Source: Promethearchaeati archaeon (lineage in GTDB: Archaea > Asgardarchaeota > Heimdallarchaeia > JABLTI01). From it: DNA of 46,644 nucleotides. The stretch spans positions 1-46,644 of the forward strand of contig JABLTI010000018.1 of the NCBI GenBank assembly GCA_013166835.1. The letters are read 5' to 3'. Under the pieces are notes generated by a model that was given only the letters and a program-made list of their open reading frames with translations, ran no database searches and was not told the origin of the DNA. Shown in pieces: positions 12,673 through 31,692 of this stretch. The stretch's first letter is position 1, and the number at the start of each line of letters is the position of its first letter. Made by a program: the position numbers and the translations under genes.

Positions 12673-13374
12673 TTGGCAAGAACAGCTCTTAAATGGATAT
12701 TAGGTATTTTACTTACAATTGCTGGCTTTTTTATAGCTGGTGTCGTGATTATTGGCTACACTATGGACGTATCCTGGGACAATAGTTTTGGTGGTATGAT
12801 TAGTGGAATTGTTATGGGATCAATATTTTTTGTTCCCGGTCTTATATTCATAATCTTGGCATTAATTGATGTCTCTCATAATGCATTTGATTTGAGAATC
12901 TCAAAAATCTTGGAAGAAAATGATCGCATTTCTCCTCCTGATCTTGCTAAAAAAGCTCATAGTAATGAGGATAAGATTGAGAAATCAGTTTCAAGAATAA
13001 TTGAAAAAGGTTTGATTATTGTTTATTTTGATAAAGCAACCGGAGAATTCGTTACTCAAGAAGGACGAGCTATCGCTGAAAGAGTAATCGGAATAATTGA
13101 ATCAAAAAGAAGAATTACTTTAGAGGAATTAGTTATTGAAACTGGCATGACTCCAGATGAGGTAAAACGCATAGTCGTAGGTATGGAAAAAAGAGGTTTA
13201 TTTAACGGTACTTATGACTGGAAAAGTGGTAAAATCCTCTCAAGAGATGGAACACGAATGTTAGCTGAAGCGACAACAAATTGCCCTCATTGTGGAGCTA
13301 ATTTGACTGAACCCCCACTAAAAGGCGAAGAAATTAAGTGTGAATTTTGCGGAGAAATTATCACAGGAAAATGA
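12673..13374 (+). CDS. Membrane-anchored protein: 2 TM + tandem PCI-like winged helices + Zn ribbon
   Basis: Two N-terminal TM helices; two WH-like repeats (RISPPDLA...GLIIVYFDKATG; RITLEELV...GLFNGTYDWKSG); CPHCG...CEFCG; GGAGG SD before TTG. Confidence 0.75.
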   Translation: MARTALKWILGILLTIAGFFIAGVVIIGYTMDVSWDNSFGGMISGIVMGSIFFVPGLIFIILALIDVSHNAFDLRISKILEENDRISPPDLAKKAHSNEDKIEKSVSRIIEKGLIIVYFDKATGEFVTQEGRAIAERVIGIIESKRRITLEELVIETGMTPDEVKRIVVGMEKRGLFNGTYDWKSGKILSRDGTRMLAEATTNCPHCGANLTEPPLKGEEIKCEFCGEIITGK

Positions 13375-14107: not shown

Positions 14108-15334
14108 ATGTCGACCAATATTACTGAGTTATTGAAAAGTTTGAATTCCAAAGATGCCATAAAAAGAGTAAAAGCTGCGAAAGTCCTGGGAGAATTAGGA
14201 AATAGAAAAGCTACTTCTGAATTAATGAAGGCATTAAAGGAAAATCCTGATGTGGATACAAGAATAGCCTGTGCACAAGCTCTAGGAAAAATTGGTGATA
14301 GAGAAGCAACAGAACTGATTATTGATACTTTTAAAGCAGACCCTGATAAAAAAGTAAAAGCTGCTTTGCTCTCTGCTTTAGGTGAACTAGGTGATGATTC
14401 CGCATTTGCTACACTAATGGATGCAATGCTAAATGAAAAACTAATTCTTATACGTGAAGCTGCAACTACTGCTTTAGGGAAATTAAATAATAAATCTGCA
14501 GCGGATGATTTGCAGAATCTTGTTCGAACAGATAAAAATACAAAAATTGTTGTGGCAGCAATAAAATCGCTCTATCTTCTGGGTGAAAGAAAAGCTGCTC
14601 CTTTATTCAAGGAGTTATTAGAATCTTCCAAAGAAATACCCATTCGTACAGAGGTTGCTTCAGGATTAGGACGAATAGGTGGAAGAGCAGCGATTCAACC
14701 ATTGGTTGCTATATTGAAGAAAGAGGAAAGTGAAATAGTCAGAGAAGCAATTGTCGTTTCATTGGGTAGAATTGCTAATACAACTGCTGTTGATACTCTC
14801 ATTGACTCTTTGAAGAAAGATAAAAGCCCCATAGTCAGAAAAAGTGCTGCTTGGGCACTAAGACGTATAAGGGATGGTCGAATTACTGCTGCTTTGATGT
14901 CACAATTAGATAAAGAAACTTTCGAAGCTGTGAAACAGGAAATAATCTCCTCATTAGGAAAACATCGGGAACGAAAAGCAGTAAATGCTATTATTGATAC
15001 CCTCAAGAATTCTAAAGATGAACAAGTAAGAAGATCAGCTGCTATTGCATTAGGAGACATTAATGATAAGAAAGCTGTCGAACCTTTACTCCATCAATTG
15101 GAAGTCGATAAAATTCCCGAAGTAAGAAAATATGCTGCTTGGTCATTAAGCAAGCTGAAGAGTGTTAATTCCAAAGAACTTTTAGTAGCTCTCAAAAAGA
15201 AAGAGAAAGATTCACAAGTAAAAGATATGATACAAACAGCAATTAATGCCATAGATGATGCTATTCATCATGCAGAAGAAGAAGCAAAAAAAGCAGAGGA
15301 ACGCTCTAAAAGAGAAGAATATTATTATTTCTAA
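14108..15334 (+). CDS. HEAT-repeat (PBS-lyase-like) protein, 12 repeats, C-terminal HbYX-like tail
   Basis: Regular 32-aa repeats of type AVxxLxxxLxxDxxxxVRxxAAxALGxIG; charged helical tail ending EEYYYF. Confidence 0.9.
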   Translation: MSTNITELLKSLNSKDAIKRVKAAKVLGELGNRKATSELMKALKENPDVDTRIACAQALGKIGDREATELIIDTFKADPDKKVKAALLSALGELGDDSAFATLMDAMLNEKLILIREAATTALGKLNNKSAADDLQNLVRTDKNTKIVVAAIKSLYLLGERKAAPLFKELLESSKEIPIRTEVASGLGRIGGRAAIQPLVAILKKEESEIVREAIVVSLGRIANTTAVDTLIDSLKKDKSPIVRKSAAWALRRIRDGRITAALMSQLDKETFEAVKQEIISSLGKHRERKAVNAIIDTLKNSKDEQVRRSAAIALGDINDKKAVEPLLHQLEVDKIPEVRKYAAWSLSKLKSVNSKELLVALKKKEKDSQVKDMIQTAINAIDDAIHHAEEEAKKAEERSKREEYYYF

Positions 15335-16096: not shown

Positions 16097-16816
16097 CTAA
16101 TTTTTGGTCAGTTTCATGACCATTGAGACAGCTGCGATTACATCTTCAGCTGGTATGCCTACTCCTCGTTTGTAGATCAATAAAGTGCCTTTGTTGGTTA
16201 TCTGAGCACTAATTTGACTGCCAGTAGGAAGATCAATGTATCCTCTGAAAAAGCGGATAACACCTTGTCTTCTATAAATGGTCCATTCTGCGGAATCGAG
16301 AATTTCGCCACTTAATTGTATTTGACTGAGAGCAGGATTATCTAGTTCTGAAATTTGAACTGTTTTAACTAATGCCGCATCACGGCAGAGTGAAACCATT
16401 GAGCTTTCACTCAAATTAACACCATCGAACTCAACACCCAAGATGCTCATTAATGGTAGTAATCCTTTCTTTGATACCCAAGAAGTTCCTCGACATTCGA
16501 GATATCTCTCTTTGGTATGAATAATATATTCGCAACGACCTTGCGAGTAGATAGCTTGTGTTTCCATTTCTCCATCTTTCATTCTTTGGACAGTAATTGG
16601 TTGTCCTACAGTATAGTAAACACTAATCATGCTACCATCGGTGTCCACATCAGAGAACCCTTCATAGAATTTACGTTCCTTAAATTCAATAGGATGTTCC
16701 TTGAGTTTTCTCACAATAGTACTTGCAGCTCCGAGTGATCCTCCATTAACATGATAAAGTCTTAATGGGAGAACCATACCTCTAGGTATAATTAGTCCAT
16801 TTGTTTGAAGTGCCAT
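16097..16816 (-). CDS. Uncharacterized soluble alpha/beta protein (possibly RdgC/DUF4747-like)
   Basis: 239-aa ORF with ATG, AGGTGA SD (16821-16826) and upstream TATA. Fold guess comes only from the strand/helix pattern. Confidence 0.8.
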   Translation of the reverse strand: MALQTNGLIIPRGMVLPLRLYHVNGGSLGAASTIVRKLKEHPIEFKERKFYEGFSDVDTDGSMISVYYTVGQPITVQRMKDGEMETQAIYSQGRCEYIIHTKERYLECRGTSWVSKKGLLPLMSILGVEFDGVNLSESSMVSLCRDAALVKTVQISELDNPALSQIQLSGEILDSAEWTIYRRQGVIRFFRGYIDLPTGSQISAQITNKGTLLIYKRGVGIPAEDVIAAVSMVMKLTKN

Positions 16817-17056: not shown

Positions 17057-18238
17057 ATGGCGTTAAAGAAATTAGAAGGCATGATATGGGGACGATTCAT
17101 AACCCTACTCTTGTTAATTGCAATACCATTATTTTATGTTTTAATGGTAGTGGGATCTCTTCCACAACTTGGTTGGTTCAATCCTGCAATAATTACCTAT
17201 GAAGATTTCACCCGTTTGGGACCTGTGCACTGGGGTATACCGTTTTTGAACGATACTTGGGCAAAAGTGTTTGTTTATGGTTTTCTACCAGTTTTCTTCA
17301 GTTTACCGTGGGTTGCTTTTCTCTTCATTGACAGAAATAGAGTTGCTGAAACCTTTGAAAACATGGGTAGAGCATTGAGAAAAGTTAGCCTCGGGTTAGG
17401 TCTTTTCTATAGCGTTAGTGCACTTATAATCTTTATTTTCTTTATTTTACCTTTTGGATCACCGATAATTGGTGTTTTCGTATCATTTGGTTTGATCCCT
17501 TGGGCAATTAAGAAAAAGACCGGACGGAATCTGCCTTGGTGGATATTGCTCATTCCGAGTTTACTGTTATCAGCCATACCAATTGTTTTGGCAATTGGAT
17601 TCTGTACAAATTATGGTGAAATTTGGAATAGTCTTTGGACCTTCTGGTCTGGAATAGGTAGTGGAACAACATTACAAGAACTGGGATTTGCTCATTATAT
17701 GTGGGGCTTTGGATATTCAGTTGCAATAGGAGCCGTTTTTGCTGGATTTGCAAACTTTGTCTATGAAGGGGCTTCCTATATGGATCACTTCACAAAGAAA
17801 CCAAAAGGTCTTCTATATATCGTTGAATTTGTGGTTGCTGCTGTGGTCTTTACTCTTTATATGATCTTTCCAGTATCTGCGAGAACCGGTGAAATTATGT
17901 TTTACATCATAAGTGGTCTTGCTATATTAGTTGGTCTAACTGAATTTATAATGCGCTTTTTCAGAAAGAGAAGACGATCCGATAGAGAAAATGTTCCTGT
18001 TGGTGCTTTAGTTATGGTGCCACTATTCATTGCTGTTGATCTTGTTCGATTAGCTGGAACAACTGAAATCCGAAATGCTGCAATAACTGCTGCACTGGGA
18101 TTGGTCTGTATCGTTTACCTAGTACTCTTCCTGATGGCATATTCATTCGCTGGAGAAACCTACAAATCTCGTTGGAGTAAAGGATACGGCGATGACGAAG
18201 ACGACGATGATGACGAAGATGTATCTGATGAAGACTAG
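17057..18238 (+). CDS. Uncharacterized multi-pass membrane protein with acidic C-terminal tail
   Basis: About 9-10 hydrophobic segments; ends GDDEDDDDDEDVSDED; GTGAGG SD. Confidence 0.8.
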   Translation: MALKKLEGMIWGRFITLLLLIAIPLFYVLMVVGSLPQLGWFNPAIITYEDFTRLGPVHWGIPFLNDTWAKVFVYGFLPVFFSLPWVAFLFIDRNRVAETFENMGRALRKVSLGLGLFYSVSALIIFIFFILPFGSPIIGVFVSFGLIPWAIKKKTGRNLPWWILLIPSLLLSAIPIVLAIGFCTNYGEIWNSLWTFWSGIGSGTTLQELGFAHYMWGFGYSVAIGAVFAGFANFVYEGASYMDHFTKKPKGLLYIVEFVVAAVVFTLYMIFPVSARTGEIMFYIISGLAILVGLTEFIMRFFRKRRRSDRENVPVGALVMVPLFIAVDLVRLAGTTEIRNAAITAALGLVCIVYLVLFLMAYSFAGETYKSRWSKGYGDDEDDDDDEDVSDED

Positions 18239-29453: not shown

Positions 29454-30719
29454 ATGATGACCTTGGGACAAACAGTTATTGAGAAAATATTTTCAGCTCA
29501 TACAAAAGATGAAGTTGAACCTGGAAATATTATTTGGCTAGATCTAGATGTGCGGAGTGCGAGAGATTTTGCAGGCGCAAATGTTGTTGGTAATTTAAAG
29601 AAAAATTATGGTGATCAAGAGAAATTCGAAGATAAAGAAAAAACAGTTTTTACTTTTGATTGTGTAGTTCCAGCAAATAACTTAGGTTATGCTGAAAATC
29701 AACAAATCATTCGGTTTTTTGCTAGAGAAGAAGGTATTAGAGTTTTTGATTCCGAATGGGGAATCGGTTCACATGTTTTAATAGAGGAAGGTTATAGTGT
29801 CCCAGGTTCTACAGTTGTTGGCACAGATAGTCATCTCAATATAATGGGCAGTGTTGGCTCTTTTGGCCAAGGTATGGGTGATCAAGATATTGCTTTTGGT
29901 ATGAAAGCAGGTAAAACTTGGTTTGAAGTTCCACCTACTATGAAAGTTATTATTGAAGGTGAATTGAAAGCTCCCTGTTCTGCAAAAGATTTAACCTTAG
30001 CAGTTATCAAGAAATTGACTTCAAAAGGTGCTCTTGGGAGAGCTATAGAATTTGAAGGAAAAGCTATTGATAAGCTCTCTTTTGCGGGTAGAATAACATT
30101 GGCTTCAATGGTCACAGAAATGGGCGGAATAGTTGGTTTTATTCCACCGAATCAAGAAATTGTTGATTATTTTAAAGCAAGAGCTAGAAGTGAATTTACT
30201 CCATATTATGCTGATGAAGATGCAAAATATGTTGAAGAAGTTGTAATTGATATTAATGATTTGAAACCACTTATTGCGGTTCCATTTAAACCTGATAATG
30301 TAGTTGAAGTAGAGTCATTAGAAAAAGACAAAATTCATGTGGATTCTGCTTTTCTTGGCAGCTGCACAAATGGTCGTTATGAAGATATGAAAATAGCTGT
30401 TGATATGTTAAAAGGCAAACAAATTGCTGAGCATACTGTCATGAAAATTGTTCCAGCAACAAGAACCGTACTTGGTGATATGATTAAGAATGGTGACCTA
30501 CAAACTTTATTCGATGCAAGAGCACTTGTAAGTAATCCGGGTTGTGCTGGATGTGCTTCTGGTCAAATTGGAATGACTGGAACAGGTGAAGTGCAAGTTT
30601 CAACAGGTAACCGGAATTTCAAAGGAAAACAAGGAGCTGGTTTAACCTATCTGTGTAGTCCTGCAACTGCAACTGCTGCTGCCCTTGCCGGCAAGATTAT
30701 CAGCCCAGAAAATCTTTGA
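29454..30719 (+). CDS. LeuC/HacA-family dehydratase large subunit (divergent active site)
   Basis: GQT..EKI, GTDSH, GSCTNGR, PGCAGC (three Fe-S Cys), STGNRNFKG. Confidence 0.9.
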   Translation: MMTLGQTVIEKIFSAHTKDEVEPGNIIWLDLDVRSARDFAGANVVGNLKKNYGDQEKFEDKEKTVFTFDCVVPANNLGYAENQQIIRFFAREEGIRVFDSEWGIGSHVLIEEGYSVPGSTVVGTDSHLNIMGSVGSFGQGMGDQDIAFGMKAGKTWFEVPPTMKVIIEGELKAPCSAKDLTLAVIKKLTSKGALGRAIEFEGKAIDKLSFAGRITLASMVTEMGGIVGFIPPNQEIVDYFKARARSEFTPYYADEDAKYVEEVVIDINDLKPLIAVPFKPDNVVEVESLEKDKIHVDSAFLGSCTNGRYEDMKIAVDMLKGKQIAEHTVMKIVPATRTVLGDMIKNGDLQTLFDARALVSNPGCAGCASGQIGMTGTGEVQVSTGNRNFKGKQGAGLTYLCSPATATAAALAGKIISPENL

Positions 30720-30735
30720 TTTGGAGGAGAAATAA

Positions 30736-31269
30736 ATGAAGAAATCTGTAATTCTAAAAGGTAGAGCATTAGTAATAAGAAATGAGAAAATCGAACCTAT
30801 TGATGACATTGATACTGATATGATTTTTCACAATAAGTATCTCCACATTACTGATATCAACGAAATGGGTCAGTATGCGTTTGATAATCTTGATGGATGG
30901 AAGGATTTTGCTAAGAAAGCAAAGAAAGGAGATATTTTAATTCTAGGTGCAAATTTTGGCTCTGGTTCATCAAGGCAACAAGCAGTAGATTGCTTTTCTG
31001 CACTTGGTGTTCAAGTGCTAATTGCCAAATCATATGGTGCAATTTACAAACGTAATGCAATAAATGCTGGTATGCCAATATTACAAGCTGATGTGATTGA
31101 TGAGATCAAATTTATCGAAAATGAAGATGAAATCGAAGTTAATCTCGAAACAGGTTTGATAAAAAATCTCACGAAAAATAAAGAATACAAAGCTAATGGC
31201 ATGTCAAACGTACAAATAGATATCTATCATTCAGGAAACCTGTTTGAGTACGCGAAAAATTTGAAATAA
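30736..31269 (+). CDS. LeuD/HacB-family dehydratase small subunit
   Basis: DIDTDMI, NFGSGSSR, IYKRNAINAG; GGAGG SD; 16 bp after the large subunit. Confidence 0.9.
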   Translation: MKKSVILKGRALVIRNEKIEPIDDIDTDMIFHNKYLHITDINEMGQYAFDNLDGWKDFAKKAKKGDILILGANFGSGSSRQQAVDCFSALGVQVLIAKSYGAIYKRNAINAGMPILQADVIDEIKFIENEDEIEVNLETGLIKNLTKNKEYKANGMSNVQIDIYHSGNLFEYAKNLK

Positions 31270-31356
31270 CTTTTTCGAAAAAATGTCCGCTTCAACAAAA
31301 AAGAAATAGTACTAGTAATAGATGTTTATTAAATGGAAAAATATGGTGTTTGAATT

Positions 31357-31692
31357 TTGTCTGATTTAGAGAAAAAACTACAATTAATAGAAGATAGAAT
31401 GAAAGAACATCTTTCTTCTGATAAAGATGCAAAATTATTGCGAACACTTATGGAGACGTTAATCGATATAAGAGAAGCTTTTGAGGAATTTAATCGCTTC
31501 TTCAAAATTGATATTAATTTAGAAGAACTTGAAGCCTTCCAGCCAAAAGAAATCGAATATTCAGGAGAATGGACGGATTCTTTGGTGAAAATTTGCGAAG
31601 TTTTAATAGATCTGTATAAAAGAATCGATAAAAAAGATCTTGCAGAAAAATGGCAGAAAAAGCTTGTTGAATTAAAGGACTTTTCTGTCTGA
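31357..31692 (+). CDS. Hypothetical helical protein
   Basis: 111-aa ORF, TTG with GGTG upstream, charged helical composition. Confidence 0.65.
   Translation: MSDLEKKLQLIEDRMKEHLSSDKDAKLLRTLMETLIDIREAFEEFNRFFKIDINLEELEAFQPKEIEYSGEWTDSLVKICEVLIDLYKRIDKKDLAEKWQKKLVELKDFSV

Follow-up and report, generated by a model that had tools for sequence, protein, structure and literature searches.

The HEAT-repeat gene and its product

The window analysed here is a stretch of 46,644 nucleotides from a Promethearchaeati archaeon (Asgardarchaeota, Heimdallarchaeia; assembly GCA_013166835.1, contig JABLTI010000018.1). At 14108-15334 of its forward strand it carries a gene for a 408-residue HEAT-repeat protein with an aromatic C-terminus of the hydrophobic-Tyr-X (HbYX) type. 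An earlier reading of the letters and translations, made without database searches (the sequence-only reading), had taken the protein for a candidate PA200/Blm10-like activator of the 20S proteasome. The aromatic tail was found to be retained in every orthologue, and a 20S-tethered scaffold or adaptor is put forward below as a tentative role. The following features were assigned.

14108-15334, forward strand: complete coding sequence with ATG start, 408 residues and TAA stop
14108-15262, forward strand: alpha-solenoid of about 12 PBS-lyase-type HEAT repeats with a 32-residue period, residues 1-385 (Pfam, AlphaFold2 helices, self-identity at lag 32, alphaRep folds)
15266-15319, forward strand: charged helical stalk, residues 387-404, HHAEEEAKKAEERSKREE, continuing the last HEAT helix (AlphaFold2 helix 369-407; invariant residues)
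15320-15331, forward strand: aromatic C-terminal tail Tyr405-Tyr406-Tyr407-Phe408 of HbYX or Tyr-Phi type (15 distinct orthologues; synonymous codon swaps)
15332-15334, forward strand: stop codon, at the same position across all orthologues

The C-terminus of the protein reads ...AEEEAKKAEERSKREEYYYF. Bases 15320-15334 are TAT TAT TAT TTC TAA, and the HbYX motif lies at the extreme end (Tyr-Tyr-Phe, then stop).

Nine Pfam families were matched at E <= 0.01. These included HEAT_2 (PF13646; E 1.9e-71 in 6 stretches, 236.8 bits against a cut-off of 27.7) and HEAT_PBS (PF03130; E 2.2e-43, 142.1 bits against 20.9). No proteasome-related family was among the nine, nor was the PAC2 domain (PF09754). 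All 10 NCBIfam matches stayed under their curated cut-offs (best NblB, 110.9 bits against 300), so the protein falls outside the named lyase and NblB subfamilies.

A monomer model was calculated with AlphaFold2 from an alignment of 12 orthologues, with a mean predicted local distance difference test score (pLDDT) of 94.9 and a predicted template modelling score of 0.85. It consists of 24 helices. Successive A-helices begin exactly 32 residues apart, at 17, 49, 81 and so on up to 369. Self-identity of the protein was 23.9% at lag 32 compared with 5.9-9.7% at the other lags of 28-36. The 12 repeats of 32 residues and the charged helix running into YYYF-stop were thus confirmed as first read. The nearest solved folds found with Foldseek in the PDB were artificial alphaRep proteins (6fsq, E 6.9e-14; 4zv6_A, template modelling score 0.75 on the target), and no PA200/Blm10 chain occurred among the matches listed through rank 50. 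The protein is a PBS-lyase/alphaRep-type solenoid of regular helix-turn-helix repeats.

The terminal helix is unbroken over residues 369-407 in the model and bears the aromatic residues at its tip; the charged stretch is therefore a helical extension of the last repeat. Mean pLDDT was 70 in the last of the ten-residue blocks (residues 401-408). The stalk (387-404) is built from Ala and charged residues only and is without a hydrophobic heptad. It looks like a single-alpha-helix (E/K/R) spacer, not a coiled coil, and a molecule therefore probably carries one tail. Six stalk positions were invariant in the 15 sequences (E390, E392, K395, A396, R399 and E403), and the charged ones are set at i/i+3-4 spacing. 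Taken as a whole, the product was shown to be a cytosolic scaffold, in which twelve HEAT repeats of PBS-lyase type form a rod, a charged stalk of some 20 residues extends the last helix, and the Tyr-Tyr-Phe carboxy-terminus is free.

Two other assignments were ruled out by inspection. The tail has neither the Gln nor the hydrophobic residue of a PIP box at the required spacing. Repeated His-Glu pairs are the motif of deoxyhypusine hydroxylase, and the protein lacks them.

Retention of the aromatic tail

Among 3200 crude open reading frames (ORFs) of the genome, a penultimate Tyr was found in 96 (3.0%), an HbYX-type end in 36 (1.1%) and a YYx end in 8. At such a frequency the motif means little in one sequence. 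The sequence-only reading had cautioned that TAT-TAT-TAT could arise by chance in an AT-rich genome (33.7% GC; 3.56 Mb in 260 contigs, 85% complete), and for the single sequence this caution was justified. It does not extend to the retention of the tail, which, as far as the alignments indicate, exceeds chance.

Each of the 11 other genomes of this Heimdallarchaeial family (two genera) had an orthologue, at 59-96% identity. Six more loci came from a metagenome scan; three repeated known sequences, which left 15 distinct orthologues. Their last four residues were YYYF (12 sequences), YYYY (two) and LYYF (one, the sister-genus copy at 59% identity). Tyr accordingly occupies both P3 and the penultimate position (P2) in 15 of 15; loss of the penultimate Tyr, which had been named beforehand as an observation that would refute a proteasome tail, was seen in none. 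The stop codon did not change position in any orthologue; among the 12 genome-derived sequences it was TAA in 11 and TGA in one. Both TAT and TAC were used at each of the three Tyr codons, and both TTC and TTT at the Phe codon. Selection therefore acts on the protein and not on the DNA, and the caution about AT-richness is answered. The constant tail is flanked by variable stalk positions (387-389, 391, 394 and 400-402).

The C-termini of neighbouring genes at the same loci (up to 11 genomes each) drifted in sequence and often in length. This was seen for the Holliday-junction resolvase Hjc (KLV, KLA, KLL, KLF, LLE or VQE), a 239-residue ORF (TKN, AKN, AEN or AKT), a winged helix-turn-helix (wHTH) protein and a GNAT acetyltransferase, the end of which was highly variable. 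Among the 25 HEAT-repeat proteins of the genome, an HbYX-type tail was found in the 408-residue protein itself and in no other; 66 distant metagenomic HEAT relatives with a complete end yielded one. On these counts the charged stalk with aromatic tail is peculiar to this one HEAT orthologue group.

A profile of the last 54 residues, run over 83 genomes of the class, recovered the 12 family members and two marginal matches (E 0.003 and 0.004). A full-length profile search of 1.84 billion representatives gave 98,787 matches at E <= 0.001 and no further orthologues; giant multi-repeat HEAT proteins prevailed, and the best 150 were nearly all longer than 1000 residues. Word-index searches returned generic HEAT proteins only for the full protein (22-40% identity) and, for residues 345-408, 13 candidates with none at E <= 0.001. 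In the ESM Atlas only generic bacterial HEAT clusters were matched.

HbYX-type ends also occur on further proteins of the genome. A 271-residue TPR-repeat protein (C185:4368-5183) has an acidic run and ends in ...EEKLYL, which makes it a second solenoid with an HbYX-type terminus. A 298-residue ORF without Pfam match (C123:48335-49231) ends in ...YAYYF, its final three residues being those of the HEAT protein. An HbYX-type tail is likewise carried by a 434-residue Ras-family small GTPase with a weak C-terminal match to an S27a-like zinc ribbon (C156:1874-3178) and by a caspase-domain (Peptidase_C14) protein (C74:7770-8663), the latter two being eukaryote-like features.

Proteasome components and their tails in the same lineage

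The genome encodes a single alpha and a single beta subunit, adjacent on contig C102, together with PAN, a Cdc48-type ATPase and three PAC2 proteins. In this locus (C102:9888-13135) the beta and alpha genes are packed so closely that only 1 base separates the stop of the first from the start of the second. About 960 bases downstream of the pair, past one opposite-strand ORF, lies a gene for a 285-residue HEAT_2/HEAT_PBS protein ending in ...KTVY, which is not HbYX.

HbYX tails dock into pockets of the alpha subunits, and PA200 is a HEAT protein with such a tail (PMC13022661). Three papers describe what the pocket lysine does (PMC3605417, PMC12352868 and PMC13022661). In 27 of 27 alpha subunits of the class, this lysine (K65) and the gate residues Y10, D11, P19 and Y28 were invariant; by our own reading of the alignment position, K65 would be the K66/K68 of the published work.

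C-terminal ends in the genome were ...RFFV for PAN, ...APYI for Cdc48, and FYT, LFI and YYI for the PAC2 proteins. Across the 12 genomes of the family, the YYI PAC2 protein ended in YYI (six), YYL (two), FYL (one) or FMI (two; 11 complete ends), and PAN in FFV (six), FFT, FYV, FYS or YFV (10 complete ends). The penultimate residue of PAN was Phe in 8 of these 10 and Tyr in 2. Of 24 PAN ends from other families of the class, 22 had Phe at this position (GFI in 16 genomes of family f2, for example) and two had Tyr. PAN of Heimdallarchaeia thus mostly has a penultimate Phe, as against the canonical Tyr. The idea that PAN had lost its Tyr uniquely in the present family, with the HEAT protein as compensation, was rejected since the penultimate Phe is found class-wide. 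From the ends compared here, aromatic-aromatic-x is the local style of 20S-docking tails, which the HEAT tail follows and keeps more strictly than PAN does.

Human 20S requires Tyr at P3 and Tyr or Phe at P2 (Opoku-Nsiah et al., PMC8907193). According to the same paper, monovalent PA200 keeps the Tyr-(Tyr/Phe) rule strictly and multivalent PAN and Rpts relax it; a strict Tyr at P3 with Tyr/Phe at P2 in monovalent activators is its postulate. The strict Tyr-Tyr of the HEAT tail next to the looser PAN tails matches this monovalent/multivalent expectation.

Two E2 (UQ_con) domains and one ubiquitin-fold gene were detected over Pfam cut-offs elsewhere in the genome (C197:31661-32023, C110:18209-18460 and C194:775-969). 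The UQ_con and ubiquitin families had no match in 14 control prokaryote genomes. Ubiquitin and two E2 make an extra proteasome-side receptor conceivable and are not evidence for one.

Co-folding with alpha subunits

Three copies of the alpha subunit (27-row alignment) were co-folded with the last 54 residues of the HEAT protein (12-row alignment). Scores were 0.56, 0.60 and 0.57 (median 0.57) compared with 0.09 for the best of 3 controls. The result was graded as weak support, and no interface was reported. The runs shared at least 73% of contacts, and partner pLDDT was at least 74. In calibration, 58 of 80 solved complexes and 2 of 110 mismatched pairs passed, counts that are only rough for own alignments and the multi-copy layout. 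The co-fold may add a small increment to the proteasome reading.

Genomic neighbourhood

The HEAT gene stands alone, with the GNAT acetyltransferase gene divergent upstream and the hjc gene convergent downstream. Farther away are genes for a wHTH/PCI-like membrane protein, a CMD-family protein, an MFS transporter and an ADP-dependent kinase. Gene order around the HEAT gene is preserved across the genus. The genomes of the genus are collinear, and the synteny was therefore given no functional meaning; an operon context was rejected for the same reason and for the isolation of the gene.

The wHTH/PCI-like protein (12673-13374, forward strand) has 233 residues, a hydrophobic N-terminal region, a PCI-domain match in Pfam (E 2.8e-10, 40.7 bits against a cut-off of 22), an HTH_24 match and a C-terminal Cys-x2-Cys ... 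Cys-x2-Cys arrangement. Its gene keeps its place two positions upstream of the HEAT gene in 10 of the 11 related loci, although one of these copies is a fragment truncated by the edge of the locus. Otherwise, the PCI fold typifies subunits of the proteasome lid, CSN and eIF3. The 239-residue ORF (16097-16816, reverse strand) is without Pfam match and conserved across the genus at 74-98% identity. A conserved multi-pass membrane protein (17057-18238, forward strand), also without Pfam match, has a long acidic C-terminal run (...DDEDDDDDEDVSDED).

Proposed role and alternative explanations

The HEAT protein is tentatively proposed to be a scaffold or adaptor tethered to the proteasome by docking of its tail to 20S, a role given somewhat less than an even chance. 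The Tyr-Tyr-Phe tail would insert into the pocket between two alpha subunits, like the HbYX tails of PAN, PbaB, PAC2 and PA200; K65 would receive its carboxylate, and its aromatic rings would occupy the hydrophobic and Tyr sites. Docking would tether the solenoid at the 20S entrance, where solenoid-bound clients may be delivered to 20S or the gate modulated. The main function of the protein would then be that of an ATP-independent adaptor or regulator. As a regulator it might alternatively compete with PAN and PAC2 proteins for the alpha pockets. Of the earlier proteasome-tail assignment, the conservation of the tail, the fit of the motif to the strict Tyr-(Tyr/Phe) rule and the preserved alpha pocket speak in its favour, with the co-fold contributing weakly. 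The PA200-like cap suggested at the same time was not borne out. One tail and 408 residues make a PA200-like dome impossible, and a twelve-repeat rod is more plausible as a tethered adaptor or regulator.

Several observations weigh against docking to 20S. At E <= 1e-45 all 12 genomes of the family had the gene and none of the 71 genomes from six other families of the class did, so all conservation evidence comes from a shallow clade. Of 375 comparable columns, 148 (39%) are invariant, and because the protein is well conserved throughout, the two invariant end columns are not a statistical outlier alone. HbYX-type ends are frequent and for the most part have nothing to do with the proteasome. 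None of 20 scanned HbYX-ended ORFs belonged to a proteasome family; they include aconitase, aldehyde ferredoxin oxidoreductase, NDK and nitroreductase. A 298-residue protein without Pfam match and with a hydrophobic N-terminal segment, encoded just upstream of a PAC2 gene (C173:29152-30048; PAC2 at 30580-31377), ends in ...SQFLFYL and keeps FY-x in 8 of 10 orthologues inside a hydrophobic C-terminal stretch (...IEIVSSQFLFYL). This end is probably structural, and a conserved HbYX-like end is therefore not diagnostic alone. Only 7 of the 80 solved complexes, but both of the passing mismatches, passed the co-fold with a score of 0.60 or under. Solved HbYX-alpha complexes exist, so a pass may reflect model memory. 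No operon or neighbourhood tie to proteasome genes was found at the HEAT locus, where genes for GNAT, Hjc and the wHTH membrane protein adjoin. Finally, one tail per chain predicts low affinity.

Much of the same evidence would be accounted for if the tail docked to a receptor other than 20S, such as a C-terminus-binding domain of PDZ-like or other type, an AAA+ ATPase, or a component of the cytoskeleton or the ubiquitin system, with the solenoid a scaffold in an unrelated complex. Conservation and specificity of the tail fit any receptor for a free aromatic C-terminus, the support that the co-fold lends to 20S is weak, and an acidic run followed by C-terminal aromatics resembles non-proteasomal ligands (Phi-x-Phi PDZ ligands, EEY/F tails). 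The searches nevertheless turned up no candidate receptor. PDZ_6 had no match in the 85%-complete genome, and the single PDZ_2 match, in a membrane M50 protease, stayed below threshold at 23.5 bits (cut-off 27). CAP-Gly also had none, but its control was silent in every genome, which makes this search uninformative. The tail moreover resembles PAC2 and PAN tails of the same genome, and a non-20S receptor is judged unlikely, though a serious contender. A structural role of stalk and tail without an external partner, by self-association (head-to-tail or as a dimer with the tail in another copy's groove) or by capping of the solenoid, has a low probability. It would explain why invariant residues recur every 3-4 positions along one side of the terminal helix (I382, I386, E390, E392, K395, A396, R399, E403, Y406 and Y407). 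Solenoid grooves commonly bind peptides, and the FY-x end of the PAC2-adjoining protein offers a structural precedent in the same archaeal family. However, the monomer model keeps 369-407 as one continuous helix, with mean pLDDT 70 at its tip, and the composition of the stalk provides no hydrophobic heptad for a coiled coil.

Ranked just behind such a structural role, and improbable as well, is an ordinary HEAT_PBS scaffold whose aromatic end has no specific role and persists through a shallow clade and slow evolution. The proportion of invariant columns, the confinement of all orthologues to two genera of one family and the base rate of the motif agree with it. Yet the sister-genus copy has still retained LYYF at only 59% identity, flanking stalk positions vary and the tail does not, synonymous swaps at all four tail codons have occurred without loss, and the stop is fixed, unlike those of Hjc, GNAT and the wHTH protein. 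Descent from a common ancestor with eukaryotic PA200/Blm10, in reduced form, is effectively refuted. The shared helical-repeat class and the Tyr-Tyr-x end are all that speak for it. No PA200/Blm10 family is among the nine Pfam matches and no such chain among the listed Foldseek matches, the regular 32-residue PBS-lyase repeats are nearest to alphaRep designs, the gene is absent from 71 of 71 genomes of other class families at the threshold given above, and 408 residues compare with about 240 kDa for PA200 (PMC13022661).

Comparison with known systems

Repeat sequence and fold are common to the HEAT protein, HEAT_PBS/HEAT_2 proteins and the derived alphaRep; stalk and aromatic tail occur only in its own orthologue group. 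With PA200/Blm10 it shares a single-chain helical-repeat architecture and the Tyr-(Tyr/Phe) C-terminus (PMC8907193), with Tyr at P3 and P2 in all 15 orthologues, and, as predicted, ATP independence. It differs in that PA200 forms a dome of about 240 kDa over the alpha ring (PMC13022661), for which the HEAT protein is too small, and in that its tail sits on a projecting helix and not under a cap.

PbaB is an ATP-independent archaeal activator with HbYX motifs on tentacle-like flexible C-terminal helices, and both its terminal three residues and the pocket lysine of alpha are needed for binding and activation (PMC3605417). The archaeal origin and an HbYX at the end of a projecting C-terminal helix are points of likeness; PbaB is, however, a PAC2-fold homotetramer with four tails, whereas the HEAT protein lacks a PAC2 match and probably bears a single tail. 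The HEAT protein would therefore be analogous to PA200 and PbaB and not of common descent with them. PAN and Cdc48 likewise have aromatic residues at the extreme C-terminus, but they are hexameric ATPases and their tails vary more within the family.

Literature searches were made on three combinations of terms. HbYX with archaea and HEAT repeat gave no archaeal HEAT-repeat proteasome partner, the titles being mostly on eukaryotic proteasomes, PA200 and the proteasome in general. Asgard with proteasome and HbYX gave no HEAT-repeat protein with an HbYX tail. For Asgard or Heimdall with PA200/Blm10, neither name was among the matches listed. Known archaeal partners of 20S fall into AAA ATPases (PAN, Cdc48, AMA) and PAC2-family proteins.

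Significance

Asgard alpha-solenoids are described as unusually abundant and functionally unassigned (bioRxiv 10.64898/2026.10.28.762692). Were the proteasome reading wrong, the conserved tail would still mark a C-terminus-recognising partner of an anonymous repeat protein. It is possible, though on balance doubtful, that this family of Heimdallarchaeia evolved a monovalent HEAT-solenoid partner of 20S independently of PA200, which a strictly conserved Tyr-Tyr-Phe tail on a rigid charged stalk would anchor and which would itself be a receptor for substrates or cofactors at the proteasome entrance. The protein could then be an archaeal counterpart of the Rpn1/Rpn2, Ecm29 and PA200 solenoids in a genome with ubiquitin and two E2, in which proteasomal ubiquitin receptors were not searched for. 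If docking to 20S is correct, the protein would offer a natural test of the strict Tyr-Tyr/Phe proposal for monovalent activators (PMC8907193). An HbYX-anchored helical-repeat scaffold would then be a third kind of archaeal 20S partner, found in the archaea that stand nearest to eukaryotes.

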